From positions 5,959 through 69,958 of the forward strand of contig CAYUAQ010000002.1 in assembly GCA_964442705.1 (NCBI GenBank): a DNA stretch of 64,000 bases. Direction: 5' to 3'. Numbering within the stretch: the stretch's first letter is position 1; the number at the start of each line of letters is the position of its first letter. The notes beneath the pieces were generated by a model. The model had not been told where the DNA came from. It saw nothing but the letters and a program-made list of their open reading frames with translations, and did not search any database. Shown one piece after another: positions 24,477 through 57,258 of the stretch. This stretch comes from an uncultured Desulfobacteraceae bacterium (GTDB taxonomy: Bacteria; Desulfobacterota; Desulfobacteria; Desulfobacterales; JALSRD01). A program made the translations under genes and the position numbers.

Positions 24477-24495
24477 CTGGGTTCATCCTCGCTCA

Positions 24496-24984: not shown

Positions 24985-25102
24985 CTTGATCGTCCCAGTG
25001 GCTAGGCCACGTGAGGGCGGGAAAAAACCAGGAGGGTGCCTGCGCACCCTCCTCGCAACTTCCCGCTGATTTTCCTGGCAGAAAAAAGGCGGCCGCGGGA
25101 GG

Positions 25103-26161: not shown

Positions 26162-26338
26162 CGGCCTTCCTCCCTTCTGGTTGATACGTTCCATGTAAAA
26201 AAAGAACAGCGATCCTCCTTGAATATCACCTCCCTGCAGGACGAAAACACCCGTGGGGCCAGGGTTGGAAAACCCGGATGCACGGCTGGAAAAGGGCGGC
26301 CGGTATGCGCCCGATGACGATCTGCGGAGAATGAATCA

Positions 26339-29233: not shown

Positions 29234-30199
29234 TCACGAACGGCGGTCCTCCTTCTGCGGCCACAGCGAGGTGATCTGCGGCGCGTCCGTGCGATAGGTC
29301 AGCCGCTGGTCGACATCGTCTTCGCGGTAGAATTCGTTGGCCTTCTCCACACCCCGGTCGAACTTGGACATGCAGCGCATGGCCTTGTGGTTGTCGAGAA
29401 AGGCGATCTCGTGCACCAGCGCCCCCAGAAAAACGATGATGTGGCCGAAGGGGTCCACGAAGGACACCCCCTCGATGTCGATGATCACGTACTGGTCCGA
29501 AAGCGTGACGATGGGCGACCGCGGGGTGTCGCTGATCCCGATGGTCCGCACGCCGCACTGCTTGGCGTATTTCATCATCTCGATGGTACGCCGTGGGTAG
29601 CGCGGAAACGCCAGGACCACCATCAGGGTGTTGGGGGGCCCCTCGTTCAGGGCGTCGGTCAGTTCCCAGGAGAGGCTGGTGTCGACGGTCACGTCTTCGC
29701 GCACTTTTTTCAGCAGGTATCCGAAATGGTAGGCCAGTGTGGCCGAGGCCCGGTAGCCGACCACGTACACCCGCTCGGCGTCGAAAATCGTGCGGGCGAT
29801 CTTCCTGAACTCCTCTTCCGTAATCGAGGCCAGCATGTTCTGCAGGTTGGCGATGGCGTTCCGGCAGTAGCGCTGGATGGTGCTCCCCTCGTCGGAAACC
29901 GGGCGCGTGTGGGTCAGGCGCTCGGAACTGGTCAGTTCGGTGTGCAGCAGGGCCTTCATGTAGTGCAGAAAGTCGGCGTAGCCGGAAAATCCCAGGTCCA
30001 CGCTGAAACGGATGATGGTCGGTTCGCTGACGCCGCACTTTTCGGCGATCTCCCGTGCCGTCATCAGAAAGATGTTCTTGTAGTCACGCATGATCATGTC
30101 CGCCACCCGTCGCTTCTTGGGAGACAGGCGCGGATAGACTTGAATGATCCTGTCGAACAGGTCTTTCTTGGCTGACTTTATCTCTTCGCCCCGGGGCAT
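29234..30199 (-). CDS. RpiR/MurR-family transcriptional regulator (HTH_6 + SIS)
   Basis: 321 aa. HTH LMTAREIAEKCGVSEPTIIRFSVDLGFSGYADF, then a SIS-type sugar-isomerase-like fold (RVYVVGYRASATLA...). Confidence 0.85.
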   Translation of the reverse strand: MPRGEEIKSAKKDLFDRIIQVYPRLSPKKRRVADMIMRDYKNIFLMTAREIAEKCGVSEPTIIRFSVDLGFSGYADFLHYMKALLHTELTSSERLTHTRPVSDEGSTIQRYCRNAIANLQNMLASITEEEFRKIARTIFDAERVYVVGYRASATLAYHFGYLLKKVREDVTVDTSLSWELTDALNEGPPNTLMVVLAFPRYPRRTIEMMKYAKQCGVRTIGISDTPRSPIVTLSDQYVIIDIEGVSFVDPFGHIIVFLGALVHEIAFLDNHKAMRCMSKFDRGVEKANEFYREDDVDQRLTYRTDAPQITSLWPQKEDRRS

Positions 30200-30899: not shown

Positions 30900-32105
30900 T
30901 CATATGCTCTTGAGCCACTCGCGCCTGTTGGGGCACACGGCCGTGACGGTGGTGCAGGCGGCGTTGCCGTCGCAGGCGCACTCGTGCTCGGCGTCTTGGT
31001 AGAAGCGCCCGTAGCAGAAATCGTGAATGGGCAGCGAGGTCTGGCAGTCCAGGATCAGCTCGCCGATCAGCCGGCCGATGACAGGCGCCAGGCCGAAACC
31101 GTGGCCGCAGAAACCCGTCACGAACACGAACCCGGGCACCTCCGAGGTGAGCCCCAGCACCGGGATGCCGTCCGAGGTCTGGGCGATGAGGCCCGACCAC
31201 ATGCGGATCACGTTGAGGTTCCTGAGCACCGGGAAATAATCGATGACCATCCGCGAAATGGCCGGCCCGATGTGGTGAAACAGCGGTTTGCCCCGGCGGT
31301 AGATGAACTGCTCGGTGCCCACGAAACCGCCCCAGAAGAAGGGTCCGTGCACCGTCTGCCGGCCGTAGAACAGCCCCCTGGCGTGCCCCACCATCTGCGC
31401 GAAGAGCGGCGGGTAGGGCTCGGTGATCATGGCCTCGGAAAAAATAGGGCGCATGGGAAAATCCAGCCCCACCATGTTGGCGATGCGCCGGCCGGCCACC
31501 CCGGCGGCGTTGACCACCACTTCGGTTTCAAAAACGTGTTTGTCGGTCACCACCGCGCTCACGCGTCCCTTGCGCAGCCGGATGCGGTGCACCTCCTCCT
31601 GGGTGTAGAAGCGCGCCCCCAGGCTCTTGGCCTTCTTGAAGTAGCCGTAAGTCACCAGGAAGGGATTGACGTGGCCATCCGTGGGACAGAAGCTGGCGCC
31701 CACGACCTTTTCTCCCACGTAGGGGTTGATCTCCAGCACCTGGCGGCGGTCGAGCATCTCCAGCTCCAGGCCCGCTTTCTTCTGGTTCTCCACCGCGTTT
31801 CGCATCAGATCCAGCTCTTCCTCGCAGGTGCACAGCCGCAGGTTTCCCTGGCGCACGTACTCCACGTCCATGCCCAATTCCTCGTGCAGCTGGCCGTACA
31901 TGCGGATGCTCTCCATGGCCAGCGGCATTTCCTTGAGGTTGCGGGCGGACTGGCGCACACCGCCGCCGGTGCTGCCGGATGCCTCGCCGCCGATGTCGGA
32001 CTTTTCGATAACCACCGGCTTCAATCCGGCCTTGGCCAGGTTGTAGGCGATGGCGCATCCCATGACGCCGCCGCCGATGATGACCGTGTCGGCTTTCTCG
32101 GTCAT
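30900..32105 (-). CDS. FAD-dependent amine/amino-acid dehydrogenase, DAO family (SoxB/HcnC/OoxB-like catalytic subunit)
   Basis: Start at MTEKADTVIIGGGVMGCAIAYNLA (32105, GGAGG RBS); the 88-aa upstream extension of the track ORF is rejected. 401 aa with a Cys-rich C-terminal tail. Confidence 0.85.
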   Translation of the reverse strand: MTEKADTVIIGGGVMGCAIAYNLAKAGLKPVVIEKSDIGGEASGSTGGGVRQSARNLKEMPLAMESIRMYGQLHEELGMDVEYVRQGNLRLCTCEEELDLMRNAVENQKKAGLELEMLDRRQVLEINPYVGEKVVGASFCPTDGHVNPFLVTYGYFKKAKSLGARFYTQEEVHRIRLRKGRVSAVVTDKHVFETEVVVNAAGVAGRRIANMVGLDFPMRPIFSEAMITEPYPPLFAQMVGHARGLFYGRQTVHGPFFWGGFVGTEQFIYRRGKPLFHHIGPAISRMVIDYFPVLRNLNVIRMWSGLIAQTSDGIPVLGLTSEVPGFVFVTGFCGHGFGLAPVIGRLIGELILDCQTSLPIHDFCYGRFYQDAEHECACDGNAACTTVTAVCPNRREWLKSI

Positions 32106-32131
32106 TGGACCTCCTGTGTTCGTAGGCTCTC

Positions 32132-32797
32132 TCAGCTGTTGGCAAAAACCTGCAGGCGAATGGGCCGCACCGGACCCCGGGCGGTGGTGGGGTCGATGTC
32201 TCCGGGTGCCAAGCCCAACTCCTCGGTCAGGATGCGCGCCACCAGCGTCTGGCAGGTCTGCCCCTGGCACAGCCCCATGCCGGCCCGGGTGATGCGCTTG
32301 ATGCCGTTTAACGTATGCATGCCGTTGCGGATGGCTTCCTTGATCTCCCCCTTGGTGATCTCCTCGCATCGGCAGATGACCAGGTCGTCGTCAGGGTCGC
32401 GGGTCTGCCCGCCGGTATCGGCCCCATCCGATGCGGCCGCCGGCGCCGCCGGGGTCGGTTCCCCCTTGAGCTGCCGGAAGCGCCGGATGACGCGCTCAAC
32501 GATCTCATCGAGCTGCGCCTCGGTAAACCCGTCTGCAGCATCCGCCGCGTCCCCGCCGGATGGCTTCTCCGGCGTTTCCGGCTCTTTGGAGTCCGTCGCC
32601 GGATCGGCGGACTCTTCCTCCGGCGAAGGGGCAGGAACGCTTTTCCCCGAGGCCACCGTTTTGACGCGAATGCCGTGCTCCCGAATCAGATCGGCGGCCG
32701 CCGAAGAGATACGGGCCCCCCCGGGGACTTCGATTTCCTTCTGTCCGGACCTCACCAGGTGCCGGACTTGCTCGGCGAATATGAAAACAGGTGCCAT
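32132..32797 (-). CDS. BFD-like [2Fe-2S] protein with N-terminal EutQ-N-like motif and internal encapsulation-peptide-like helix
   Basis: 221 aa. C-terminal ICRCEEITKGEI...GMGLCQGQTC (BFD-type). The central helix EAQLDEIVERVIRRFRQL is flanked by low-complexity Pro/Ala/Glu/Asp linkers. Confidence 0.75.
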   Translation of the reverse strand: MAPVFIFAEQVRHLVRSGQKEIEVPGGARISSAAADLIREHGIRVKTVASGKSVPAPSPEEESADPATDSKEPETPEKPSGGDAADAADGFTEAQLDEIVERVIRRFRQLKGEPTPAAPAAASDGADTGGQTRDPDDDLVICRCEEITKGEIKEAIRNGMHTLNGIKRITRAGMGLCQGQTCQTLVARILTEELGLAPGDIDPTTARGPVRPIRLQVFANS

Positions 32798-32836
32798 GCG
32801 GATACTCCCATTCTGCCGCGTGCTTGCTTCGCGCGG

Positions 32837-33217
32837 TTACTTTCCGGACTTCTTCGAACGCCGCGCCGACGGCCTGGCCTTTTTCGCTCGTGCGCCGGCC
32901 CCTGCGCCCCGGGCCTTGCGGTTTCCGGCGGGCGCCGCAGCCTCGGCCGGCTGCCCAACGGCGGCATCGATGTCGTCGGAAGGCCGCGGGATCACGTGCA
33001 CCGACACCACCTGTCCGACGCGCTCGCAGGCGGCGCTGCCGGCGTCGACGGCGGCCTTGACGGCCCCCACATCGCCGCTCACCATGACGGCCACCAGGCC
33101 GCCCTTGACCTTCTGTCGCCCCAGAAATTTCACCCGGGCGGCCTTCACCATGGCGTCCGCCGCCTCGATGGCGCCCACCAGTCCGTGGGTCTCGATCATT
33201 CCCAGTGCCTGCTGCAT
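32837..33217 (-). CDS. BMC-H shell protein (PduA/EutM type) with polybasic C-terminal extension
   Basis: 126 aa. [29 protein letters not shown]...VSVHVIPRP canonical BMC domain, plus a tail ending [28 protein letters not shown]. Confidence 0.92.
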
Positions 33218-33293
33218 GCTTTCCTCCCCTGCTGTTTCATGAAATCCGCCGGCCCGTGGCTGTCCTTATCCGTTGGCGTGCACCCCCGTGTGC

Positions 33294-33911
33294 TCATGGC
33301 TTGCGCCCCTCGAGGGCCTTCAGGGTTTCGTCGATCTTGCGGGCCGCGGCCTCGATCTCCGATTCGCTGCCCGCCAGGTAGATGCGCCCGGCGGCACCGA
33401 AGAAACGAATGTCCACCAGCCGCACGTCGCAGTGCTTTTCGGCCTCGTTGGCCGCGATGGACGAGTAGGCCGCCGGTGTAACCTCCAGCAGATAGACGTC
33501 GTCCCCGCCCAGGATCAGCATGCCCTTGCTGTTGCGGTTGATGATGACGGCCTGGTAGGGGTCGATCTTGTGAATCACGCTGGACGACAGGATGCTGGGC
33601 GCCAGGCGGTCCTGCTCGCGCAGCCCGAGTTCCTCCAGAATCATCTGCCCGGCGTGCAGCACGTCCTCGCGCTCGAAAGAGTGGATCTCCATCATGCCAT
33701 AGCGCCGCTCGACGATCATTTCTCCGGGCTTGCAGTTGGTGACCTTCAGGGAAATGTCGGCCAGGCGGTTGATCTCCACCCCCGGCAGTACTTCCACGAA
33801 AAGCGACGCCATGCCCTCCACGGACAGGAATCCCCGGCACGAGCTGGCAAACAAGGATGCGAACTGCGGCTGCATGCGGTCCAGATGACAAAAGGCTCTC
33901 AGTTCGGCCAT
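33294..33911 (-). CDS. BMC-T shell protein, CcmP/CsoS1D-like (second copy)
   Basis: 205 aa, paralogous to 30203-30820. LRAFCHLDRMQPQFASLFASSCRGF...VEVLPGVEINRLAD...LEVTPAAYSSIAANEAEKHCDVRLVDI...GRIYLAG. Confidence 0.85.
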   Translation of the reverse strand: MAELRAFCHLDRMQPQFASLFASSCRGFLSVEGMASLFVEVLPGVEINRLADISLKVTNCKPGEMIVERRYGMMEIHSFEREDVLHAGQMILEELGLREQDRLAPSILSSSVIHKIDPYQAVIINRNSKGMLILGGDDVYLLEVTPAAYSSIAANEAEKHCDVRLVDIRFFGAAGRIYLAGSESEIEAAARKIDETLKALEGRKP

Positions 33912-34010
33912 ACTATGATCTCCAGACGTTTGGACGATTGTGAACGTGAACCCGAAAAGTCTGCCTCCGGTTCCACGAAAATGTTATTGAAAAACATGCC
34001 ATTTCCGGCT

Positions 34011-34865
34011 TCATTGCTCCGGCACATCCGCCGGAACGATCCGCACGCCGTACTCCCTGGCCAGGTCGCGCGCCAGCGGTGTGACGATGCCGCCGGCGGA
34101 CAGGGTCAGGCGGTCTGCGCCGGCCTCCCTGGCCTGACGGATATCCTGGGTCGAAATCAAGCGGCGGCCCGTTTCGCCTCTCTCCGGTCCGCCGGGGCCT
34201 TCGTCGGCCAAACCTGCCCGACCGGTGCTGCGGGCCAGCTTCTCGAAATGCTCGGCCAGTCGTTCCGTCTCGCACAGCTGCATGCCGAAGCGCTCCAGTT
34301 TTTCCAGCACGCGCTGCATCTCGCGGGCCATGGCCGGGTTGGCCATCCTGTCCAGCAGCGTGAATCCGTCGTTGGCGGCCAGCACCGGCTTGTTGGCCGC
34401 AAGGGCCGAGAGCACCAGGGCGCTGCCCTGATCGTCGGCCGCCATTTGCGCCACGCGCACCGCCGTCTGAAAGCAGAAGGTCGGCAGCACCAGCACGTCC
34501 GCACGCTCGAGCACCTTCTCGATGCCATCGGGTCCGACGGTGTCCAGGATGCACCGGCTGCCCGCTTTTTCCCGCACGTCACTTCCGCAGACCCATTGGC
34601 GCGCGGCATCCACGGTAAAGACGCCGGCGCGGCCGGCCAGAGTCTCGATGCGGCGCACCTGTGCCAGGGCCGCTTCCAGCCGCCGCACACCGGGGTGAAA
34701 GACGCACAGGACCGTCGGTCCGGTCTTGTTTCGGTGCGGCGCGCGTTTTTCAGCGGGCGGCTTCACCAGCCCCTCCTCCCTGAGAATTTCCAATACCAGC
34801 CGACGGATGCGTTGCCGCCGGTCGGAAAATGCTTTTCCCTGCTGCTGTGTCACTTCGTCTTCCAC
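34011..34865 (-). CDS. BMC-associated protein of unknown function (N-terminal EP-like helix, Rossmann/flavoprotein-like middle, C-terminal EutQ-N-like motif)
   Basis: 284 aa. N-terminus RQRIRRLVLEILREEGL plus a Pro/Lys linker. Middle ADVLVLPTFCFQTAVRVAQMAADDQGSALVLSALAANKPVLAAN resembles the flavoprotein (CoaC-like) fold. C-terminus LISTQDIRQAREAGADRLTLSAGGIVTPLARDLAREYGVRIV. Confidence 0.55.
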   Translation of the reverse strand: MEDEVTQQQGKAFSDRRQRIRRLVLEILREEGLVKPPAEKRAPHRNKTGPTVLCVFHPGVRRLEAALAQVRRIETLAGRAGVFTVDAARQWVCGSDVREKAGSRCILDTVGPDGIEKVLERADVLVLPTFCFQTAVRVAQMAADDQGSALVLSALAANKPVLAANDGFTLLDRMANPAMAREMQRVLEKLERFGMQLCETERLAEHFEKLARSTGRAGLADEGPGGPERGETGRRLISTQDIRQAREAGADRLTLSAGGIVTPLARDLAREYGVRIVPADVPEQ

Positions 34866-34911
34866 TGTCTTTGCGGCGGCTTCCTGTCGGCCGCAGCGTT
34901 TTTCCGATCCG

Positions 34912-35733
34912 CTAGCGCTTGTCCAGGCAGGACAACGCGATTCCCAGCGGCGTGGTGAACTGCGGAAAAGGCGGCCGGAAAGTCTCCATTCCCAACGCCT
35001 TCTGAACGATGTCGCAAAACCCCTCCAGTTCGCAGGTGCCGCCTACCAGGCAGACGCGGTTGAGCCCCTCGAAGGGCTGCAGGCATCTTTCCACGATGGC
35101 GGCGATCTTTTCGATCACCGGCCGCACCATCGAAAGTACTTCCCGGCTCATGGCCGGGTCGGTCTTGATCTTTTCGGCCGCCTCGTAGTCGATGCCGCGG
35201 TTGCCGGCCACCACCAGGGTCAGGTGCACGCCGCCGGTGGCCTCGTCGTCGGTGAAGACCACGCCTCCCCCCTGGATCACGGCGATGCCGGTGGTGCCGC
35301 CGCCCACGTCGACGATGGCGCCATTGCCGATGCCCAGCACCCGGTTGGCGGCCGTGGGTTCGTCGGGGACGCTCAGTACTTCCAGTCCTGCGCCTTCGAG
35401 AATGTAGCGCGTGGCGTCCACGTTGGCGTCCTCGGTGCGCGGCGGATAGGAGGTGGCGCCCTGTTCGACGGGCAGCGGGCTGGCGCTGCGCATCTCCTCG
35501 ATCATCTCTCCAACCATCTGCCGCGCCCCGGCAAAATCGACGATCAGCCCGCTGCGCACCACTTCCGCCCGCCGCATGCGCGCGGCCCGCGGCCTTCCCT
35601 GCTCGTCGACGATGATCACGATGGCCTTGTAGGTCCCCAGGTCCACGCCCGCATACAGCCGTTCGGCCCCCGCGAAATCCCAGCGCTGCGGGCGATTGAC
35701 CAGGCGTGACAGCGCTTTGCCCGCATCGCTCAT
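34912..35733 (-). CDS. eutJ: EutJ-like actin/Hsp70-fold ATPase
   Basis: 273 aa. Phosphate-1 YAGVDLGTYKAIV and phosphate-2 IVDVGGGTTGIAV, with the size and layout of EutJ. ATGA overlap with the next gene. Confidence 0.8.
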   Translation of the reverse strand: MSDAGKALSRLVNRPQRWDFAGAERLYAGVDLGTYKAIVIIVDEQGRPRAARMRRAEVVRSGLIVDFAGARQMVGEMIEEMRSASPLPVEQGATSYPPRTEDANVDATRYILEGAGLEVLSVPDEPTAANRVLGIGNGAIVDVGGGTTGIAVIQGGGVVFTDDEATGGVHLTLVVAGNRGIDYEAAEKIKTDPAMSREVLSMVRPVIEKIAAIVERCLQPFEGLNRVCLVGGTCELEGFCDIVQKALGMETFRPPFPQFTTPLGIALSCLDKR

Positions 35734-36281
35734 AGGATGCTCCGCCCCAGCTGCGGGCTGGGATAGGGAATGACGGTGTGGCTCAGAACCAGGCCGCTGC
35801 CCTTGAGGGTGTCGATGCCGGCCTCCACGGCCGCGTGGATGGACGACACGTCGCCCGTCAGGGTGAGAAACGATTTTCCCCCCAGCCCGGTGGCGCAGCG
35901 GATCTCGATGATCTCGACATCCGCGGCCTTGACCGCGGCGTCGGCCGCCGTGATGGCCGAGGCCACCGAGAAGGTCTCGATGACGGCCAGGGAATCGATG
36001 GCCCGGATGCGGGTGGTGGCCGTCAGGGCCGGGAACACCGAGGCGTGCACGTTGGGGATGACGAAGTCGTCCACCAAAAATTCCCCGGCCGCCTCGCGGC
36101 CGACATCCGCGGCGCGCTCCACCGAGTCCACATCGCCGGACACCAGCACCATGAACTTGCCGGCACAGATGGGCTGTGCCATGACAAGGTCCACATCGGC
36201 GGATTTGAGCATTTCGTCCGCACTTTCCACGCCGCGGGCGACGCTGTTGAGCTCGATCATGGCGATGGCTTTCAGTTCCAT
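35730..36281 (-). CDS. BMC-T shell protein, PduT-like tandem BMC domains
   Basis: Start at MELKAIAMIELNSVARGVESADEMLK (36281, GGGGA RBS), 183 aa. Second domain LAVIETFSVASAITAADAAVKAADV. Cys in AQPICAGKF sits where PduT ligates its pore [4Fe-4S] cluster. Confidence 0.85.
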   Translation of the reverse strand: MELKAIAMIELNSVARGVESADEMLKSADVDLVMAQPICAGKFMVLVSGDVDSVERAADVGREAAGEFLVDDFVIPNVHASVFPALTATTRIRAIDSLAVIETFSVASAITAADAAVKAADVEIIEIRCATGLGGKSFLTLTGDVSSIHAAVEAGIDTLKGSGLVLSHTVIPYPSPQLGRSIL

Positions 36282-36366
36282 ATTCAATCCCCGCGTTTGC
36301 GCTTGCGGTTCAGGCGCCCTTGATATCCCGGCGCCGGGACGTCTCCGGAAAAGGCGCTGTTTCTTC

Positions 36367-37698
36367 TCAACGACGGATGACAATATCAGGCCCCACCGAC
36401 ACGACCTCACCGTCGATGCTGGCGTGTACCCGCGCCCCCAGGGCGCCCTCGGGAATCTCGCCGACGAGATCCCCCTCCCGGACGCGGTCCCCGGCGCGCA
36501 CCACGGGCACGGCCGGTTTTCCCAGGTGCTGCTGCAGCGGAATGCGGACCTCGGCAATGTCGGCCGCCCCCTCTTGAAACGGCGGGTGCACATCGTAGCG
36601 CGCCACCTGCAGCCGCTCCATCAGGCGCCGGACCGGCACCTTGCGCGTTTCCAGGAACATCGAAGCCCGGTAGGTCTCGCGGCTGGGTTCACGTTTGACG
36701 CCTTCTTTAAGCAGTTTCTGTTTTACGGCCGCGTTGATTTCCCGCGGCGACAGCATCATGGGGCAGGCAAACTTCTCGCAGATGCCGCACTCGCAGCAGA
36801 TCAGGGCGTCCTCGAGTACTTCCCCCTCCATGCCCGGCGTGTAGGCCAGGTGCCGCATGATGCGGTGCGGCTCCAGCCGGTGGCCGATCAGGTAGCGCGG
36901 GCACAGGTCCGTACAGCGCGAGCACTGGGTACAGGCGGACTTGGCGATCATGCGCATCTGGGTGAGGCTGCGCTGCTTGCCCTGCAGGACATTGTGGCCG
37001 GCCGGCAGCACGATGACCCCGCTGGTGGTCTTGGTGACCGGCGCGCTCTCGTCTTCCAGCACGCGGCCCATCATGGGCCCGCCCGAGACGACGCCGTAAT
37101 CGGAGACCGTCGCCCCCCCGGCCAGGGCGATGACGTCGCGCACCGGCGTGCCGACGGGCAGCCGACAGACCATGGGCTGCCGCACTTCGCCGCACACCGT
37201 CAGATAGCGGTGGGTGACCGGTCGGCCGGCCATGGCGCGCGCGATGTTGAGCAGCGACTCCACGTTGCTGACCACGGTCTGCACGTGCAGCGGGATGCCG
37301 CCCTCGGGGACGATTTTGCCCGTCACCTCGTGCACCAGTATGAACTCGTCCCCGGCCGGGTAGAAGTCTTCCAGTTCGAACACGTCGACCCGCTCCCCGC
37401 AGCCCCGGGCGGAAACCGCCTCGCGCAGCGCCGACACGGCCTGCGGGTGCTTGGACTTCAGGCAGAGCGTGCCGCGGGGGGCATCGGTGCAGTCCATGAC
37501 CGTCAACAGGCCGTCCACGATGGTGGGCGCCTCCCCGGTCATCAGGTGCGGGTCACCGGCCAGCAGCGGTTCGCAGGAGGCGCCGTTGGCCAGCACCCGC
37601 TGCGCCTCGAACTGCAGCTTGACGTGCGTCGGGAACCCGGCGCCACCGGCGCCGACCACGCCCGCCGCCCGCACCTTGTCGACGATATCGGCTCTCAT
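36367..37698 (-). CDS. PduS/RnfC-like Fe-S flavoprotein (electron transfer)
   Basis: 443 aa. AGVVGAGGAGFPTHVKL, two ferredoxin motifs (CTQCSRCTDLCP; CCECGICEKFACP) and a C-terminal barrel-sandwich-like segment. Confidence 0.85.
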   Translation of the reverse strand: MRADIVDKVRAAGVVGAGGAGFPTHVKLQFEAQRVLANGASCEPLLAGDPHLMTGEAPTIVDGLLTVMDCTDAPRGTLCLKSKHPQAVSALREAVSARGCGERVDVFELEDFYPAGDEFILVHEVTGKIVPEGGIPLHVQTVVSNVESLLNIARAMAGRPVTHRYLTVCGEVRQPMVCRLPVGTPVRDVIALAGGATVSDYGVVSGGPMMGRVLEDESAPVTKTTSGVIVLPAGHNVLQGKQRSLTQMRMIAKSACTQCSRCTDLCPRYLIGHRLEPHRIMRHLAYTPGMEGEVLEDALICCECGICEKFACPMMLSPREINAAVKQKLLKEGVKREPSRETYRASMFLETRKVPVRRLMERLQVARYDVHPPFQEGAADIAEVRIPLQQHLGKPAVPVVRAGDRVREGDLVGEIPEGALGARVHASIDGEVVSVGPDIVIRR

Positions 37699-37988
37699 TT
37701 AGGCTTTCCGCCGGCCGCGTCGTCCATTTCCAGGTTGTCGACAATCCCGACCACCACGGCGTCCACGGGCACCGGTTCGTCGCGTCCGAAGGACTGCATG
37801 GCCGGCGTTCCCTGGGTGACGATCACCAGTTCCCCGAAGCCGGCACCCACCTCGTCGGCGGCGATCAGCACGCCGCCCTCGGGTTTCATGTTCCCGCCCA
37901 GCGGCTGAATGAACAGCAGTCTCAGCGCCGCTATGGCGTCCTTTTTCTTGCTGGACCACACGTTTCCGATCACTTTGGCTAATAACAT
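37695..37988 (-). CDS. BMC-P pentameric vertex protein (EutN/PduN/CcmL family)
   Basis: 97 aa. MLLAKVIGNVWSSKK...IAADEVGAGFGELVIVTQGTPA...VDAVVVGIVD. Confidence 0.88.
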   Translation of the reverse strand: MLLAKVIGNVWSSKKKDAIAALRLLFIQPLGGNMKPEGGVLIAADEVGAGFGELVIVTQGTPAMQSFGRDEPVPVDAVVVGIVDNLEMDDAAGGKPK

Positions 37989-38037
37989 CCTGGTTGTCCT
38001 CCGGCCCTGGCAGGCTTACCGGTTTGTCCCCGAAAAA

Positions 38038-38349
38038 TCATTTCAGATCCTCCGAGGCCTCGATGGCCGCGATGCTGGCCTTGACATCGGCGATGTCGCC
38101 GAAGACGCCGATCATGGTGATGTGCTGGGGGCACAGTCCCCGCAGGTCGAAAACGCGGACATCGGCGGCCTTCTCGGCCACGTCGGCGGCCGCGATCATG
38201 TCCACCAGCTTCCCCTGCACGAGCCCCACGGCCGTGAAGGGGATCTCCGCCTCGGCGAACACCTTCTTGCCGGCCGCCCCGGCCCGCTGCCGGAGCATCT
38301 CGAAGACCCCCGGCGCGGGGTGGGATATGATGCGCGTGTTGAATGCCAT
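38038..38349 (-). CDS. circularly permuted BMC-H shell protein (EutS/PduU-like)
   Basis: Start at MAFNTRIISHPAPGV (38349, AGGGGG RBS), 103 aa. AVGLVQGKLVDMIAAADVAEKAADVRVFDLRG...IGVFGDIADVKASIAAI parallels the EutS/PduU order of elements. Confidence 0.75.
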   Translation of the reverse strand: MAFNTRIISHPAPGVFEMLRQRAGAAGKKVFAEAEIPFTAVGLVQGKLVDMIAAADVAEKAADVRVFDLRGLCPQHITMIGVFGDIADVKASIAAIEASEDLK

Positions 38350-38362
38350 TTTAAACCCCCTG

Positions 38363-38408
38363 GCGACACCCGGAAAACGCCCCGCCTGGAGCGCTGCTCC
38401 GGTGTCGC
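38363..38408 (-). other. nested intercistronic hairpin upstream of the EutS-like gene
   Basis: Outer 8-bp stem GCGACACC/GGTGTCGC (38363-38370 / 38401-38408) encloses an inner GGAGC-GCT-GCTCC hairpin (38388-38400). It ends about 13 nt from the RBS, inside a 195-nt GC-rich gap. Confidence 0.3.
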
Positions 38409-38544
38409 GGGTTGCTTCAGAAAGCACCCTGCCCGGTCTTGACGGGCCCGCCGCTGCGCTTCACCGGCCGTCTCGCGGCAACGCCGCGGAACACACCGGC
38501 ACCGGGCGCATGCGCGGTGGCAGAGGGCGCTCCGGGCCGGCCGC

Positions 38545-38823
38545 TCAATCGGCCTTGGGAATCGTGAATTCGATGTCGGCGTGCGGTCTGGGTATGACGT
38601 GCACCGAAACGAGTTCGCCGACGCGCTCGGCCGCGGCGCCGCCGGCATCCGTGGCCGCCTTCACGGCCCCCACGTCGCCGCGCACGAACACGGCCACCAG
38701 GCCGCCGCCCACGAACTCGCGGCCCACGAACTTCACCTTGGCTGCCTTGACCATCGCGTCGGCCGCCTCGATGGCGCCCACCAGGCCTCTGGTTTCAATC
38801 ATACCCAATGCTTGCTCGGCCAT
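38545..38823 (-). CDS. BMC-H shell protein (PduA/EutM type)
   Basis: 92 aa. [34 protein letters not shown]...[10 protein letters not shown]. Confidence 0.93.
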
Positions 38824-38902
38824 TGTCTCTTCCTCCTGTTGTCGGGTTTGAATATTCAGTAAACACGGAACGAATCATGCCGGCGCCCGAAGCGGCGCCA
38901 CT

Positions 38903-39430
38903 TCATCCGGCCGCCGCCGGCGGCCGGCCGTTTTTCAAACGAATGGCACGGGCCTGCATGGACCAATCCAGCGGCACCTCGATGGTCACCGTGGCGGTCT
39001 GGTCCATTTTTTTTCCCTGCCGCACCGCCGCCACACGGGCGTCGCCCAGTTCCCGCCCGGACCGGTCCAGGGCCGTGACAACGTCACCCTCCTCCGGCAG
39101 GGGCAGGTACTCGTAAGGCATCATCACGCTGGCGCGGCCGTCGCCGGGACCCTCGTCGACCAGGAAAATGGCCTGTCCCGGACAGATGTACACGCAGGTC
39201 CGGCAGGCTACGCACTTTTCGCCGTCCAAGTGCGGGATGCCGGTGATGTCGTCGCCCACGACGATGGCGCCGAACTTGCAGCTGGTTTCACACGGGTTGC
39301 AGGGAATGTCCTGCAGGCACTCGATGCAGGCCACCGGTCCCTTGCGGCGGCGTTCGGCTGAGGGCACTCCCGGCGCCTCCAGGAGTTCTTCTTCGGAAAG
39401 GTAGCCCGTAACAGCGGAATCATGCCCCAT
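38903..39430 (-). CDS. ferredoxin-like Fe-S subunit of the amine dehydrogenase complex
   Basis: 175 aa. Cys motifs CIECLQDIPCNPCETSC and CVACRTCVYICP. Overlaps the upstream subunit gene by 11 nt. Confidence 0.7.
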   Translation of the reverse strand: MGHDSAVTGYLSEEELLEAPGVPSAERRRKGPVACIECLQDIPCNPCETSCKFGAIVVGDDITGIPHLDGEKCVACRTCVYICPGQAIFLVDEGPGDGRASVMMPYEYLPLPEEGDVVTALDRSGRELGDARVAAVRQGKKMDQTATVTIEVPLDWSMQARAIRLKNGRPPAAAG

Positions 39431-40523
39431 CTGACTGCCCTTTCATTATGGCGTTGAGGTACTGCTTGGCCTTGCCGCGCCGCTCGCCGTGGCTGCCGCT
39501 GCGCAGCCCCTGGATGCTCTTGTACTGCCGGCCGCGCTGCTCGAGAAAGGACTTCTTGTCGAGGTAGCCCAGGCTGTGGGCGATGGCCAGCCCGGCGATG
39601 CGGCCCTCGATGATGGCGGTGCTGGCCTCCTCGATGCCGGAGATATCGCCGGCGACAAAAATACCCTCGATGGAGGTCTCCATGTTCATGTCATGGGCCG
39701 GTATGCGGCCGCCCAGGGCCGGCACGTGGGCCATGCGGCAGCCGGCCATGCGCAGCAGCTGGGTCATGGGGTTGAGACCTACGGCGATGCAGATGGTGTC
39801 GACCTCGAAATGCTTCTCGGTACCGGCGACAGGTTTCCAGGCCTCGTCCACCTGGACCACCGTGGCGCCCTCCACGCGGTCCGTCCCGTGGGCCGCCTTG
39901 ATGGTGTGCGACATCAGGAAGGGCACCCCCACGCGGGCAATCTTGGCGGCGTGCACGGCATAGGCGCCGATGCGGGGCGCCGCGTCGATGACCGCCGCCA
40001 CGCGGCAGCCAGCCTGCAGCATCTGGTAGCTCACGATGACACCCACGTTGCCCGAACCGATCATGAGGATGTCATTACCCGGCCGGATGCCGTGGATATT
40101 GGCCATGGTCTGTGCCGCGCCAGCGCCGATGACCCCGGGCAGGGTCCAGCCCGGGAAAGGGATCATGTTCTCGGAGGCGCCGGTGGCCACCAGGGTCTTT
40201 TCGCCGCGCACCTGCTCGATGCGGTCACCGATCATGACGTTCATGGCGTGGTTTTCGTAGATGCCCAGTACGACCGAATTGAGGGAGACCTCGACACCCC
40301 GTTCGCGGGCCTCGGCCAGCAGCATGCCGCCGATGTTGAACCCGCGCTCGCGGGCGTGGTGCTCCTGGGATCCGAAGAACTTGTGGATCTGCTTGAACAG
40401 CTGACCGCCCGGGCGTTCGTTTTCGTCGAACACGATCGCCTGCACCCCGTGGCGGGCGGCTTCCACGGCAGCGGCCAGCCCGGCCGGCCCGGCCCCTACG
40501 CATATCATTTCATATCGGCGCAT
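39420..40523 (-). CDS. FAD/NAD(P)-binding pyridine-nucleotide-disulfide-oxidoreductase-like subunit (HcnB/OoxA/SoxA-core-like)
   Basis: 367 aa. Two dinucleotide folds (ICVGAGPAGLAAA; MIGSGNVGVIV) and FVAGDISG near the C-terminus. No folate/GcvT-like domain. Confidence 0.8.
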   Translation of the reverse strand: MRRYEMICVGAGPAGLAAAVEAARHGVQAIVFDENERPGGQLFKQIHKFFGSQEHHARERGFNIGGMLLAEARERGVEVSLNSVVLGIYENHAMNVMIGDRIEQVRGEKTLVATGASENMIPFPGWTLPGVIGAGAAQTMANIHGIRPGNDILMIGSGNVGVIVSYQMLQAGCRVAAVIDAAPRIGAYAVHAAKIARVGVPFLMSHTIKAAHGTDRVEGATVVQVDEAWKPVAGTEKHFEVDTICIAVGLNPMTQLLRMAGCRMAHVPALGGRIPAHDMNMETSIEGIFVAGDISGIEEASTAIIEGRIAGLAIAHSLGYLDKKSFLEQRGRQYKSIQGLRSGSHGERRGKAKQYLNAIMKGQSDGA

Positions 40524-40526
40524 GAA

Positions 40527-40844
40527 TCACTCCCTGGTCTTTGGGGGGCCCTTACCTCTCTGGGTTTCCACCACCATGCCGGCCCGGAGGGGCTCGACGC
40601 AGGTGCGGATGTTGGGCTGTCCGTTGACCACCATGATGCAGTCGGTGCAGCGGCCGATGGCGCAGAACATGCCGCGCGGTTCGTTGCGCCGGGCCGTGTA
40701 ACGGTGAACCATGACACCGTTGCTGTGCAGGGCCACGGCGATGGGTTCGCCTTCGTACCCCTCCATGGTCCTGCCGTCGTAAGTGAACTCCACCCGCGGC
40801 CCCTTTTCAAACTGTCCGAGTATGGGATGCGCTTCGATTCTCAT
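40527..40844 (-). CDS. small [2Fe-2S] subunit (HcnA / SoxA-N-terminal-like, Fer2_4 type)
   Basis: 105 aa. FTYDGRTMEGYEGEPIAVALHSNGV...FCAIGRCTDCIMVVNGQPNIRTC. Confidence 0.8.
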   Translation of the reverse strand: MRIEAHPILGQFEKGPRVEFTYDGRTMEGYEGEPIAVALHSNGVMVHRYTARRNEPRGMFCAIGRCTDCIMVVNGQPNIRTCVEPLRAGMVVETQRGKGPPKTRE

Positions 40845-40889: not shown

Positions 40890-42185
40890 CTAGTAAAACC
40901 CGAAGGGTTCGCCGAAGGTGAAATTGGACCCGATCAGCGGGATGCCGGTCATGGCACAGATCTCCAAGGTCAGCGAACGCAAATCCTCGCGCTCCAGGCT
41001 GGTCAGCTTGGTCTTGCCGGCGGCCTTGGCCAGGATGACGGCCTCGTTGGTCATGGCCTGGATGTAGTTGGCCACCTGCCGGGCGGCGCGGTCCACGTCC
41101 AGGCGAAGTCGCTCTTCGGGATCCTGGGTGCCGATGCCGAAGGCGCAGCGCCCCTCGTGGCAGCGCAGGCAGACCACGCACCCCATGGCGATCATGGCGC
41201 CGGTGCCGATGGCCACCGCATCGGCCCCCAGTGCCAGGGCCTTGGCCACGTCGGCCCCGTCCTTGATGCCGCCCGAGACGATCAGGCTGACCTCTTCCTT
41301 GACACCCATGTCCTCCAGGGAGCGCACGGCCTGCACCAGGGCCGGCAGCGTGGGAATGCCCAGGTGGTTGGAGGCCACCACCGGCGCCGCGCCGGTGCCG
41401 CCCTCGGCGCCGTCGATGACGATGCCGTCCACCCCGGCCTTGACCGCGATCTTGACGTCTTCCCAGACGCGGCCGGCGGCGATCTTGATGAAAATGGGAA
41501 TCTCACCGTCGGTGACGTCCCGCAGTTCCTCCATCTTGAGGCACAGGTCGTCGGCCCCGAAGATGTCGCCGTGGCGGGGATGGCTGTGCAGGTCGATGCC
41601 CTCGGGCAGCTGCCGGAATTCGGCGATCTCCTTGGTGATCTTGCTGGCCATCAGGTGCCCCGAGAGGCCCGGCTTGGCGCCGATGCCCACGATGATCTCC
41701 AGGGCGTCGGTGGCCTCGATGTTGCGCAGCGTGAAGCCTATGCGGCTGGGCAGGATCTGCACCACCTGCTTGTAGGAGTTGGCGCGCTCCTCGGGCAGCA
41801 GGCCGCCCTCGCCGTTGTTGATGGAGGTGCCCACGATGTCCGTGGCCTTGGCCAGGGCGATCTTGGCCTCCTTGCTCAGGGCGCCGTAAGACATGCCCGA
41901 GATCATGATGGGGGTTTCGATGACCAGGGGCTTCTTGGCGAAACGGGCGCCCAGCACCGTGCGAGTCTGGCAGTCCTCGCGGTAAGTGTCGATGGACATG
42001 CGCGTGAGCTGCGACGGCAGGAAGGTCAGGTCGTCAAAGTGCGGCAGCTTGCGCGGGGTGCCGCATCCCCGGATGCGGTGCTTGCCCGCGCTGGCCTTGT
42101 ACTTGATCTCCGATATGGTCTCCGCCGACCACACGCCCCGCTGGACATCCTTGGCTCTGGGGGTCTTCTTCTCTTCTGCGGCCAT
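40890..42185 (-). CDS. glutamate-synthase FMN-domain-like protein (MgsC/GlxD-like)
   Basis: 431 aa. ISGMSYGALS, DGAEGGTGAAP, GGIKDGADVAKALALGADAV, Cys cluster CVVCLRCHEGRC. ATGA overlap with the upstream gene. Confidence 0.85.
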   Translation of the reverse strand: MAAEEKKTPRAKDVQRGVWSAETISEIKYKASAGKHRIRGCGTPRKLPHFDDLTFLPSQLTRMSIDTYREDCQTRTVLGARFAKKPLVIETPIMISGMSYGALSKEAKIALAKATDIVGTSINNGEGGLLPEERANSYKQVVQILPSRIGFTLRNIEATDALEIIVGIGAKPGLSGHLMASKITKEIAEFRQLPEGIDLHSHPRHGDIFGADDLCLKMEELRDVTDGEIPIFIKIAAGRVWEDVKIAVKAGVDGIVIDGAEGGTGAAPVVASNHLGIPTLPALVQAVRSLEDMGVKEEVSLIVSGGIKDGADVAKALALGADAVAIGTGAMIAMGCVVCLRCHEGRCAFGIGTQDPEERLRLDVDRAARQVANYIQAMTNEAVILAKAAGKTKLTSLEREDLRSLTLEICAMTGIPLIGSNFTFGEPFGFY

Positions 42186-42886
42186 TATCCCTGTGCCCTT
42201 CGTTTGTGGGTTGGTTTGAAAAGAACGTACTCGTGACGCCCATAGACCTTGGGTACGATGGTGTGGAAATCCTCCACGCCGTGTTCGACGCCGTATTTCG
42301 CGAACAGGGCTTCCAGTGCGCTTTTTTCGCTATCCTCGACGGGGATCAGGCGCACGTTGCCACCCAGTTTTTTCTCGGCCGCCGCGTCCATCACGTGGAT
42401 GCGGCCATTGTACATAGACTCGCCGATGCCCTCGCCCACGCTTCCCAGGATCACGATGCGCCCGCCCAGGGTCATCTTGCCGGCCCAACGCCCCACGTCG
42501 CCGCACACGATGAGCGTGCCGCCCTTCATGCCCCAGCCCGCCCGGCTGCCGGAGTTTCCCCGGATCACGATGGTGCCGCCCACCATGGAGGGCGCCGCGT
42601 TGCTGCCGGTGTTCATCTCCACGATGATCTCGCCGGCCGACATGTTGTCGCCGGTGTACCAGCCGGTGTTGCCCTCGACCACGATGGCGGGCCCCTCCAG
42701 GAATCCGCCCGTGTAGAAGCCCGTGCTGCCGTGCACGGTGATTTTCCCTTCCCCCTTCAGGGCGGTGGCGAAGTTGTGGATGGAGTGGGGGTTGTCGACT
42801 TCGATCTGGGCCTCTGTCTTGATCAGCTCCCGCAGCCGGCGATTGACTTCCCGGGAGCTCATGCCTGCTATGTCTAAACGGACCAT
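42185..42886 (-). CDS. GXGXG-motif protein (glutamate synthase C-terminal-domain-like; MgsB/GlxC-like)
   Basis: Start at MVRLDIAGMSSREVNRRL (42886). Repeated beta-helix motifs (HGSTGFYTGGFLEG, EGNTGWYTGDNMSAG, RGNSGSRAGWGMKGG). Confidence 0.85.
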   Translation of the reverse strand: MVRLDIAGMSSREVNRRLRELIKTEAQIEVDNPHSIHNFATALKGEGKITVHGSTGFYTGGFLEGPAIVVEGNTGWYTGDNMSAGEIIVEMNTGSNAAPSMVGGTIVIRGNSGSRAGWGMKGGTLIVCGDVGRWAGKMTLGGRIVILGSVGEGIGESMYNGRIHVMDAAAEKKLGGNVRLIPVEDSEKSALEALFAKYGVEHGVEDFHTIVPKVYGRHEYVLFKPTHKRRAQG

Positions 42887-43773
42887 ACCCGTACTCCTCC
42901 TGGATCCATCTCCGTGGCATAGACGTCGGAGACGATGGGGGTTAAACAAATCTGTTCCGATCCCAGCAGTACCGTTCCGTCGCCCTTTTCGAAGAACAGT
43001 ACGGGCTTGATGCCCAGCCGGTCCCGCAGGGCGCCGATTTTGTCGGCGGTGGAGGCCAGGATGGTGAACACGCCGTCGAAGGTTTCCAGTCCCTGGTGAA
43101 GGGCCGCCTCCAGGTCCAGTCCCTTCTCCTTCATCTGGTGGGCCAGGAAGTGAACCGCCATCTCGGAGTCGTTGTTGGTCTTGAAGCGCACGCCCCAGCT
43201 CTCCATACGGCGGCGCATGTTGAAGTAGTTGGTGAACTGGCCGTTATGCACGATGGCCAGCTCGGGGTAGAGGTAGGAGACGAAGGGGTGCGCGAAATTG
43301 ATGTTCTCCACACTCTCGGTGGCCAGGCGCACGTGGCCGATGCCGTGGGTGCCCAGGGTGGGCGGAATGTGGTGCTGCTCCTGCAGCTCGGCGGCCGACC
43401 CCTCGTCCTTGTATACCTTGATGCGGCGGCCCAGGGAGTGCACGCAAAGTTCCGGGTGGTCGTCGATGGCCCGGTGCAGGTCGGCCATGCGGGCGTCATC
43501 CATGTCCACGCAAGCCTCGTAGAAGGTGAAAACCCCCCGTCCCTGGTAGCAGCGCTCTTCGGAGATGCGCCCGTAGGCGCCGATGACCTGCTCCAGCTTT
43601 TCACGGTGCTCTGGTGCCGTCAGCGATACCCGCAGGTCGACGGTGTCCCGGTTTTCGTAGACCGCGATCCCCGTGGCGTCCCGGCCGCGGTGGATGAGTT
43701 CCTTGAGCATGCTGATCAGATCGTTTCCCAGCGTGGGGGAATCCTTGGCAATCAGCCCGGCGATACCGCACAT
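42874..43773 (-). CDS. class II (Ntn) glutamine amidotransferase-like protein (MgsA/GlxB-like)
   Basis: 299 aa. Met-Cys N-terminus MCGIAGLIAK (Cys nucleophile after Met removal). GHVRLAT, HNGQFTNY. Confidence 0.85.
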   Translation of the reverse strand: MCGIAGLIAKDSPTLGNDLISMLKELIHRGRDATGIAVYENRDTVDLRVSLTAPEHREKLEQVIGAYGRISEERCYQGRGVFTFYEACVDMDDARMADLHRAIDDHPELCVHSLGRRIKVYKDEGSAAELQEQHHIPPTLGTHGIGHVRLATESVENINFAHPFVSYLYPELAIVHNGQFTNYFNMRRRMESWGVRFKTNNDSEMAVHFLAHQMKEKGLDLEAALHQGLETFDGVFTILASTADKIGALRDRLGIKPVLFFEKGDGTVLLGSEQICLTPIVSDVYATEMDPGGVRVWSV

Positions 43774-48049: not shown

Positions 48050-48068
48050 TCTGTATTTTCCTTCTTGC

Positions 48069-52498: not shown

Positions 52499-52625
52499 AT
52501 AACCAATGGCCCGCTTCCTGTCAACCGCAAATCTGGGAAATCCGTTTCTACTTTTTTTTGGCTTTTGGTCTACGCTGCCCTTTCCCCGGCAGGAGGTGAC
52601 CAGGCCCTCTCCTAGGAGGTGTCAA

Positions 52626-54204: not shown

Positions 54205-54207
54205 ATC

Positions 54208-57233: not shown

Positions 57234-57258
57234 GAAGCCGGTTTCACGCGGGCATGCA

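Follow-up and report, generated by a model that had tools for sequence, protein, structure and literature searches.

Genes for a candidate amine dehydrogenase

We analyzed a 64,000-nucleotide stretch of DNA (the window) from an uncultured Desulfobacteraceae bacterium (GenBank assembly GCA_964442705.1, contig CAYUAQ010000002.1, positions 5,959 to 69,958), which carries five genes for a candidate heteromeric amine dehydrogenase. The genes lie on the minus strand in two blocks, block 1 at 38903-40844 and block 2 at 30900-32797, with bacterial microcompartment (BMC) genes between them. The main tools were comparisons with Pfam, NCBIfam, and the Protein Data Bank (PDB), tblastn, open reading frame (ORF) calling, and Rfam and tRNA scans; the last two were empty for the window. 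The five ORFs, located in these blocks by an earlier note on this DNA, were confirmed by Pfam and NCBIfam matches and by coding bias. They are part of a long minus-strand gene array, and the codon bias of the genes concerned is strong, with a GC content at third codon positions (GC3) of 0.80 to 0.92 (0.80 to 0.87 for the five ORFs). All of the domains that the note had named for them (DAO, Fer2_4, Fer2_BFD, Pyr_redox_2, and Fer4) were matched in Pfam.

Block 1 begins with a gene for a 105-amino-acid (aa) [2Fe-2S] protein of the Fer2_4 family (40527..40844; PF13510, E = 5.7e-29), the counterpart of the SoxA N-terminal domain and of HcnA, in which C61, C66, C69, and C82 are invariant (79 of 79 loci). 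The next gene (39420..40523) encodes a 367-aa two-Rossmann FAD/NAD(P)-type protein of the Pyr_redox_2 family (PF07992, 1.5e-31), which, judged by its match to the soxA model (131.9 bits), is the core of the alpha-like subunit. The third gene (38903..39430) encodes a 175-aa 2x[4Fe-4S] ferredoxin-like protein that matches Fer4 families at approximately 5e-6 and has eight cysteines invariant in 78 of 78 orthologs. Block 2 encodes a 221-aa BFD-type [2Fe-2S] protein (32132..32797) with matches to Fer2_BFD (PF04324, 2.4e-14) and SO_alpha_A3 (PF17806, 8.9e-12) at aa 140 to 219; its cysteines C142, C144, C177, and C182 are invariant in BMC and non-BMC forms alike. The last gene of the set (30900..32105) encodes a 401-aa DAO-family protein (PF01266, E = 4e-73), the putative catalytic, beta-like subunit. 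Among the scored candidates, 1,413 homologs of the DAO protein were found at an E value of ≤1e-20, and each of the best 120 shares at least 80% identity with it. A 489-aa ORF overlying the DAO gene (30900-32369) was rejected as a high-GC artifact, as 120 of the 120 best homologs are 401 aa long and start with MTEK.

Species-representative genomes were scanned with the 367-aa Pyr_redox_2 protein, and the 80 loci obtained were then searched by tblastn with all of the locus proteins, with ORF calling and Pfam added for Firmicutes. Every BMC-type locus found derives from a metagenome-assembled genome (MAG). The five-gene set is kept at 47 to 97% identity in more than 20 Desulfobacterota MAG loci, far beyond chance, and the hosts of related loci are Desulfobacterales, Desulfatiglandales, and Syntrophobacteraceae MAGs.

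Evidence for one heteromeric enzyme

The Fer2_4, Pyr_redox_2, and BFD proteins match consecutive, nonoverlapping parts of the 996-position soxA model (TIGR01372), at positions 10-99, 171-503, and 523-596, respectively. Because the three proteins match consecutive parts of SoxA, the alpha-like subunit is split three ways, with one piece encoded in block 2. The matches end where the folate-binding part of SoxA begins, and no GCV_T, SoxD, or SoxG domain was found by Pfam in the approximately 55 proteins scanned across the window. The earlier note had described the alpha-like subunit as a 367-aa protein without a folate-binding domain; the second half of this description held for the window, and the first gave way to a subunit divided among three proteins. 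Membership in the heterotetrameric sarcosine oxidase and N-methylglutamate dehydrogenase group (SoxABDG/MgdABCD) was rejected. Besides the missing folate, SoxD, and SoxG domains, the best soxA score was 131.9 bits against a cutoff of 1164, with only positions 10-596 matched, and the soxB model (TIGR01373) scored 129.9 bits against a cutoff of 529.

Among solved structures, the best match to the DAO protein is the beta subunit of PDH1, the alpha4beta4 proline dehydrogenase (PDH) of Pyrococcus horikoshii (PDB 1Y56_B; E = 2.8e-51 over aa 2 to 368), which aligns end to end with moderate identity; SoxB (2GAG_B) was matched at 3.5e-21. The Pyr_redox_2 protein matched SoxA (2GAG_A, 8e-18) and, in part, PDH1 alpha (1Y56_A, 1.9e-11), and both window proteins are homologs of the archaeal PDH alpha and beta subunits (PH1363/PH1364). 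A D-proline dehydrogenase model of NCBIfam was matched only marginally (40 bits against a cutoff of 600). Archaeal PDH complexes are likewise multisubunit, O2 independent, and dye linked, and one small PDH subunit is reportedly ferredoxin-like. Small extra subunits are a feature of the alpha-beta-gamma-delta PDH of Thermococcus profundus and P. horikoshii (PMC8704557). In contrast to archaeal PDH, the window has an alpha subunit split into three, a separate 2x[4Fe-4S] protein, BMC-specific extensions, and a location among shell genes. Its partner genes, for proteins like glutamine synthetase (GS), proteins like GltB, and an aldehyde dehydrogenase (AldDH), suggest that something different from free proline is the substrate.

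HcnABC, the heteromeric D-hydroxyproline dehydrogenase, and the opine oxidases are composed of Fer2_4, Pyr_redox_2 (plus BFD), and DAO parts. This domain inventory is complete in the window, yet it is spread over five proteins, with BFD separate and an additional 2x[4Fe-4S] subunit. The genomic context also differs from that of these enzymes, and nothing in the window points to glycine, an opine, or hydroxyproline.

The gene order in Firmicutes bears on whether the two blocks belong together. In approximately 55 Firmicutes loci, genes for Fer2_4, a Pyr_redox_2-Fer4 fusion, BFD, and DAO are contiguous in that order, and none of these loci contains shell genes. The fusion is a single protein of 525 to 530 aa with the Fer4 domain at its C terminus, and the carriers include Blautia schinkii, Pseudobutyrivibrio, Anaerostipes, Roseburia hominis, and Coprococcus. 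Their Fer2_4 proteins are 60 to 72% identical to that of the window and their DAO proteins 43 to 45%, and their BFD/A3 proteins are 106 to 124 aa long. Compared with this arrangement, the Desulfobacterota loci amount to the same gene row with shell genes placed between Fer4 and BFD.

The five proteins therefore probably form one heteromeric C-N bond-oxidizing Fe-S flavoenzyme of the HcnABC/PDH/SoxAB type, and we infer the complex of five subunits from sequence and gene context. The kinship with such flavoenzymes that the earlier note had proposed was borne out by the Pfam matches, the soxA colinearity, and the match to 1Y56_B.

A shell-less operon of gut and rumen Lachnospiraceae (locus L029, 8081-16062; also L022, L036, and L044) combines the dehydrogenase genes with genes for LysR, RidA, P-II, an amino-acid permease, and an ornithine cyclodeaminase/mu-crystallin. 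This suggests an uncharacterized, nitrogen-regulated amino or imino acid dehydrogenase.

Microcompartment genes and BMC-specific additions

Nine shell and accessory genes, all on the minus strand and assigned by Pfam and NCBIfam except where stated, separate Fer4 of block 1 from BFD of block 2. They encode a BMC-H protein (38545-38823), a GrpU-like BMC-H protein with an invariant C73 (38038-38349), a BMC-P protein (37695-37988; Pfam BMC/EutN and NCBIfam), a PduS-like (RnfC/PduS-like) flavoprotein (36367-37698), a tandem PduT-like BMC-T protein with an invariant C39 (35730-36281), a EutJ-like protein (34912-35733), a TIGR02536-like protein (34011-34865; NCBIfam), a 205-aa BMC-Tdp protein (33294-33911; CsoS1D_N, annotated on 205-aa orthologs), and a second BMC-H protein (32837-33217). 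A second BMC-Tdp gene, with the same basis of annotation, follows the DAO gene (30203-30820, minus strand).

MIC6 was catalogued as a BMC type of three loci from anaerobic Deltaproteobacteria, with unknown function (Sutter 2021, Nat Commun, Supplementary Data 2). According to the same source, its shell consists of two BMC-H proteins, one BMC-P, two BMC-Tdp, PduT-type BMC-Ts, and GrpU-type BMC-Hp; the type further has an AldDH with an N-terminal encapsulation peptide (EP), a pfam04324 [2Fe-2S] protein, and a pfam01266 oxidoreductase, the last with a BMC-specific C-terminal extension of approximately 30 aa containing four cysteines. The window locus has exactly this shell inventory, and it also has the EP-bearing AldDH, the pfam04324 protein, the pfam01266 protein with its four-cysteine tail, and a deltaproteobacterial host. 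By its gene content, the locus is MIC6, a catalogued but functionally orphan BMC type. The catalogue entry does not mention Fer2_4, Pyr_redox_2, Fer4, GS-like, or GltB-like genes, which are found here as conserved parts of the locus; and whereas three loci were catalogued, the type is represented here by more than 20 species-level MAGs and by metagenome proteins in the hundreds. The earlier note had correctly seen a two-block enzyme between shell genes. It did not recognize the locus as MIC6, it missed the BMC-specific extensions of the BFD and DAO proteins, and it did not link the dehydrogenase to the GS-like and GltB-like genes upstream.

The C-terminal tail of the DAO protein, ECxCxGNAxCTTxTAxCPxKREWLKSI, is present in 120 of 120 close homologs, whereas Firmicutes orthologs lack it. 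The BFD protein carries an N-terminal extension of approximately 135 aa that is confined to the BMC lineage, whereas non-BMC orthologs (106 to 124 aa) are without it. This extension has three parts, namely, a conserved 48-aa motif, a variable linker rich in Pro, Ala, and Glu, and a conserved amphipathic helix (LDEIVERVIRRFRQL). The helix, at aa 96 to 110, resembles an encapsulation peptide and has the top helical hydrophobic moment of all 15-mers in the locus proteins. It may be the encapsulation signal of the dehydrogenase, a role that we infer from these properties; if so, the other subunits would enter the shell as part of the complex. The dehydrogenase is the probable aldehyde-generating signature enzyme of MIC6, which would give this BMC type its first candidate function.

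The N-terminal motif of the BFD extension resembles the C terminus of the TIGR02536-like protein (E = 2e-6). A motif of approximately 45 aa (..I..DIR.....G...L.L..G.I.TPLA.DLARE.GIRI) closes the latter protein (34011-34865), and a related motif opens the BFD protein (32132-32797). The shared motif may be a docking element of microcompartment proteins.

Upstream GS-like and GltB-like genes

Four genes on the minus strand precede block 1. The first (43855..45195) encodes a 446-aa GS-like protein, a putative gamma-glutamyl ligase (Gln-synt_C, 3.7e-103). It is followed by genes for a 299-aa class II (N-terminal nucleophile [Ntn]) amidotransferase of the MgsA/GlxB-like type that starts with MCG (42874..43773; GATase_6/7), a 233-aa GXGXG subunit of the MgsB/GlxC-like type, counted from an internal ATG (42185..42886; PF01493, 3.2e-21), and a 431-aa glutamate synthase FMN-domain subunit (GltS-FMN) of the MgsC/GlxD-like type (40890..42185; PF01645, 6.8e-103). 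Every Desulfobacterota locus that is long enough has these four genes immediately before Fer2_4. Wherever sequence is sufficient, the amidotransferase gene comes right after the GS-like gene, the place of the GXGXG gene is conserved across loci, and the three GltB-derived genes and the ligase keep their order in more than 15 loci.

Over its full length, the GS-like protein can be aligned with type I-alpha GS structures, and it scores under the NCBIfam cutoffs for GlnA, GS-III, and gamma-glutamylputrescine (GGput) synthetase, as well as for GmaS (TIGR03105; 319.9 against 469.6). The catalytic Glu of the flap (Glu304 in Bacillus subtilis, PGYEAP) is replaced by Phe311 (LGAFCP), with Phe in 18 of 18 orthologs, and FANDV stands in place of the Asp50' loop motif FDGSS. 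In the GmaS structure the flap Glu is Trp and Asp50' is Ala, replacements that have been tied to the use of methylamine instead of ammonium (PMC7948447). Because both the flap Glu and the Asp50' loop motif are absent, the protein is unlikely to be a true glutamine synthetase, and it is predicted to make a gamma-glutamyl-amine instead of glutamine. A reading of the upstream genes as true GS and glutamate synthase (GOGAT) was rejected because of the Phe found in all orthologs. The GS-like orthologs fall into three identity groups (at least 79%, 64 to 69%, and 53 to 58%), which may reflect different amine specificities.

An Ntn amidotransferase, a GXGXG protein, and an FMN-domain protein compose the N-methylglutamate synthase of methylamine users. 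The window shares with the N-methylglutamate pathway (GmaS, MgsABC, and MgdABCD) the logic of a GS-like ligase without the ammonium-site residues, three GltB-derived proteins, and a neighboring SoxB-related dehydrogenase. In contrast to that pathway, the window's dehydrogenase belongs to the PDH/Hcn type, has Fe-S subunits, and lacks the GcvT-like folate domain, SoxD, and SoxG. The hosts are strict anaerobes, and the set is coupled to a microcompartment and an acylating AldDH. The closest system in its workings is the N-methylglutamate pathway, and the closest enzymes are the archaeal PDH complexes and the HcnABC-type enzymes.

No other protein of the locus is as well conserved as GltS-FMN, with 80 to 98% identity in Desulfobacterota and 74 to 78% in Firmicutes. 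The 3Fe-4S motif of GltB is C-x5-C-x4-C, from which the invariant motif of GltS-FMN (C336-x2-C339-x2-C342-x4-C347) differs. Between BMC and Firmicutes loci, identity is lowest for the GS-like protein (40 to 43%) and the DAO protein (43 to 45%). These two most diverged proteins would be the ones that contact a variable amine moiety, which fits an N-substituted glutamate as the substrate of the dehydrogenase.

Block 1 directly follows the GltS-FMN gene, the four-cysteine motif of GltS-FMN could accept electrons, and the Pyr_redox_2 protein has weak matches to GltD-type models (approximately 50 bits). The Fer2_4, Pyr_redox_2, and Fer4 proteins could accordingly be a GltD-like NAD(P)H reductase module for the GltB-like synthase, with DAO and BFD as a separate two-subunit enzyme. 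A variant would have the whole set run in reverse as an NADH-oxidizing imine reductase that recycles NAD+ in the shell, MIC6 having no alcohol dehydrogenase for NAD+ recycling. We consider both forms of this explanation very improbable. The approximately 55 Firmicutes loci hold Fer2_4, Pyr_redox_2-Fer4, BFD, and DAO together without a GltB-like gene; the Pyr_redox_2 protein scores 131.9 bits against soxA compared with approximately 50 bits against GltD models; and Fer2_4, Pyr_redox_2, and BFD are colinear within one SoxA-type alpha subunit, and BFD sits in block 2.

Gene order and downstream genes

In the Desulfobacterota loci that extend far enough, the order is GS-like, class II amidotransferase, GXGXG, GltS-FMN, Fer2_4, Pyr_redox_2, Fer4, the nine shell and accessory genes, and then BFD and DAO. 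DAO is followed by BMC-Tdp, RpiR, AldDH (in one or two copies), a class I amidotransferase-like hydrolase, RidA, and a transporter. In locus L014, from a Desulfobacula MAG, the same genes are arranged differently. Three shell-less Firmicutes loci, L025 (Bacillota MAG) and L046 and L074 (Syntrophomonas), hold the whole enzymatic set contiguously, in the order amino-acid permease, class I amidotransferase, GS-like, class II amidotransferase, GXGXG, GltS-FMN, dehydrogenase genes, and RidA.

All of the downstream genes of the window lie on the minus strand. An RpiR/SIS-family regulator (29234..30199; HTH_6 and SIS) is kept after the second BMC-Tdp gene. The next gene (27721..29193) encodes an acylating AldDH of the EutE/PduP type (NF011927, 519.7 bits against a cutoff of 403), which has an N-terminal amphipathic helix at aa 7 to 21. 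Genes for the class I amidotransferase-like hydrolase (26980-27708) and a RidA imine deaminase (26470-26886), both identified by Pfam and NCBIfam, come next; such genes also flank the non-BMC operons L025 and L074. No alcohol dehydrogenase or phosphotransacylase was found in the locus by Pfam scan or is part of the MIC6 description. Two tandem AldDH genes (approximately 482 and 480 aa) are present in loci L082 (13504-16577) and L084 (13466-16780), which also have an Oxidored_FMN (old yellow enzyme [OYE]) gene after RidA.

A TRAP transporter (DctP/Q/M, 23175..26194, minus strand; Pfam) lies at the end of the array and is also downstream in L001, L083, and L084; it is the probable substrate importer. 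It is replaced by a Dpp-type ABC transporter in L082, and a Liv-type ABC transporter lies upstream in L012. The TRAP binding protein, which is not close to any characterized protein, was not decisive as a guide to the substrate; its nearest PDB entry is a lactate-binding protein (only E = 1.5e-24), followed by sialic acid and isethionate binders.

The GS-like, DAO, AldDH, and class I amidotransferase-like set mirrors the PuuA-D pathway. In a Puu-like alternative, the GS-like enzyme would gamma-glutamylate a diamine or amino alcohol, and the dehydrogenase, as an anaerobic analog of PuuB, would oxidize the free end in the shell. AldDH would then oxidize the gamma-glutamyl aldehyde, and the class I amidotransferase-like hydrolase, as an analog of PuuD, would free glutamate. 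A DAO-family oxidoreductase, an AldDH, and such a hydrolase are all present, and the GS-like protein does match the GGput synthetase model with 268 bits. However, this score is far under the cutoff of 650, the match of the hydrolase to Peptidase_C26, the PuuD family, is marginal (E = 4e-4), and the universally conserved three-protein GltB-like synthase would be left without a role. TRAP transporters are not known as polyamine importers, which also counts against the Puu-like scheme. We regard it as distinctly improbable.

Proposed pathway

We consider it somewhat probable that in these organisms an amine is gamma-glutamylated, made into an N-substituted glutamate, and oxidized in the shell to an aldehyde that is trapped by the EP-tagged acylating AldDH. 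The amine would first be imported; it is probably zwitterionic or acidic, because the importers are of the TRAP, ABC, and APC types, and the transporters in the loci argue indirectly for an amine other than methylamine. The GS-like enzyme would ligate the amine to glutamate at the expense of ATP, and the three-protein GltB-like synthase would turn the gamma-glutamyl amide into an N-substituted glutamate, which would pass into the shell. There, the five-subunit dehydrogenase would oxidize the N-alkyl bond to an imine. Since no folate domain takes up the one-carbon or alkylidene unit, the imine would hydrolyze, possibly with the help of RidA, to glutamate and a free aldehyde, which the EutE/PduP-type AldDH would convert to acyl coenzyme A. 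As no alcohol dehydrogenase or phosphotransacylase is encoded in the locus, the electrons of NADH and flavin would have to exit by an Fe-S route, via the Fer4 subunit, the PduS-like protein, and the PduT-like and GrpU-like pore proteins, to the sulfate-respiring cytoplasm. In this scheme, sequence and gene neighborhood are the basis for the proposed encapsulation, class of substrate, product aldehyde, and path of the electrons. Two functional ideas of the earlier note are reasonable, namely, that the enzyme would be enclosed because it releases a free aldehyde or imine and that its electrons would leave through Fe-S proteins instead of to O2; they fit the presence of the EP-tagged acylating AldDH, RidA, PduS, and the Fe-S pore proteins.

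Several observations weigh against the proposed pathway. PDH1, the closest solved relative of the dehydrogenase, oxidizes free L-proline and not an N-alkylglutamate. Most Firmicutes dehydrogenase operons have no GS-like or GltB-like genes nearby, so that the dehydrogenase family is not tied to N-alkylglutamates, and ornithine cyclodeaminase and P-II genes adjoin these operons instead. Where shell-less operons are linked to GS-like genes, their DAO proteins are only 43 to 45% identical to the BMC form. For the GS-like protein, the score with true GS structures (272 bits) exceeds that with GmaS (214 bits). The BFD helix with its following linker has only a weak similarity to the N-terminal EP region of AldDH (34% over 38 aa, E = 0.084). 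The roles given to the class I amidotransferase and RidA are guesses, and genes beyond the 64-kb window could encode a folate-binding partner.

In another explanation, the dehydrogenase would act directly, like archaeal PDH, on a free amino or imino acid such as L-proline, hydroxyproline, sarcosine, or a D-amino acid. The product would then be glutamate-5-semialdehyde, glyoxylate, or formaldehyde, and the GS-like and GltB-like genes would merely reassimilate the released nitrogen. The L-proline dehydrogenase PDH1 beta as the best solved relative (E = 2.8e-51), the top scores of the GS-like protein with true GS structures, and the Firmicutes operons without GS or GltB genes beside ornithine cyclodeaminase, P-II, and an amino-acid permease all favor this explanation, and RidA suits an imino-acid product. 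However, the GS-like protein lacks the flap Glu (Phe in 18 of 18) and the Asp50' loop motif. All BMC loci, as well as three loci without shell genes in another phylum, carry the GS-like and GltB-like genes next to those of the dehydrogenase. In addition, an AldDH of the EutE/PduP type does not act on 2-oxo acids, which amino-acid dehydrogenases usually form. We therefore consider oxidation of a free amino or imino acid unlikely, although less so than the reductase and Puu-like alternatives, and prefer the route through an N-substituted glutamate.

A broader and more tentative extension of that route, possible but doubtful, is that MIC6 as a whole is a new kind of anaerobic amine-oxidizing organelle, in which an N-substituted glutamate, made from an amine by way of ATP-dependent gamma-glutamylation, shuttles across the shell, a folate-free dehydrogenase frees the aldehyde inside, and electrons leave through [4Fe-4S] pores to sulfate respiration.

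Novelty and significance

The MIC6 type and its DAO and BFD proteins have been known since 2021. New are the five-subunit enzyme, its putative targeting features, which are BMC specific, the conserved feeder genes of the GS-like and GltB-like types, and the functional hypothesis, each with the strength given above. Searches of the literature for a link of microcompartments to N-methylglutamate, sarcosine oxidase, or MIC6 found nothing relevant, nor did those linking anaerobic or sulfate-reducing bacteria with the N-methylglutamate pathway.

Known catabolic microcompartments form their aldehyde by B12-dependent or glycyl-radical lyases, by aldolases, or by an aminotransferase-linked route. If the proposal is true, a flavin/Fe-S amine dehydrogenase fed by a gamma-glutamyl/N-alkylglutamate pathway would be a new class of signature enzyme, and a function would be assigned to an orphan BMC type that is not rare, with hundreds of metagenome proteins at ≥80% identity. 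Amine oxidation independent of O2 in sulfate reducers would also bear on carbon and nitrogen cycling in anoxic sediments. Under the broader and more doubtful extension given above, Desulfobacterota, which are abundant in marine sediment, would gain access to small amines, conceivably including the methylated amines regarded as "noncompetitive" substrates of methanogens; in that case, formaldehyde would be the encapsulated aldehyde. The locus would further offer a natural system for studying how electrons are exported through a protein shell. The dehydrogenase family itself is widespread and uncharacterized in bacteria, as its operons without shell genes in Firmicutes, among them gut Lachnospiraceae, show.

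Flanking genes of the window

A molybdenum-bis(pyranopterin guanine dinucleotide) (Mo-bisPGD) oxidoreductase (730 aa) and a Fer4_11 protein (160 aa) are encoded directly upstream of the GS-like gene (45447-48082, minus strand). This pair was rejected as a core part of the locus, as only the window, L007, and L010 have it next to the locus, and its orientation is opposite in the latter two. The best models for the oxidoreductase are PhsA and Fdh-alpha, both far under the cutoff. The flank upstream of the GS-like gene is not conserved in five further loci, where it contains genes for an acyl-CoA ligase, an amidase, a Liv-type ABC transporter, and a beta-lactamase-like protein. As a clue to the substrate, these flanks yielded no more than "amino-acid-like or amide."

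The GC content is 63 to 67% in the microcompartment locus (26000-48000) and 54 to 60% in the flanks, and the contrast suggests that the locus may have been acquired horizontally. The IclR gene at 48069-48887 has a GC3 of only 0.58. A glutamate dehydrogenase gene (21204-22661, plus strand) adjoins the TRAP genes on the opposite strand, and its product could link the glutamate/2-oxoglutarate pool to the pathway.

An Hmc/Tmc-like respiratory module (671-6862, minus strand) encodes a multiheme cytochrome c3 protein (538 aa), a Fer4_11 protein, an NrfD-like membrane protein, and another Fe-S protein, with an Rrf2 regulator beside it (6916-7425). An Hmc-like cytochrome c3 complex in the flanks fits a sulfate-reducing host. 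At the other end of the window, the region at 52506-63805 encodes a TctCBA tripartite transporter, a class III aminotransferase, a short-chain dehydrogenase/reductase, an aldehyde:ferredoxin oxidoreductase, and a 527-aa Amidohydro_3 protein and is possibly a second amine or amino-acid module. An Amidohydro_3 gene also occurs within the related MIC6 loci L082 and L001, and some of the related loci contain an OYE gene as well.

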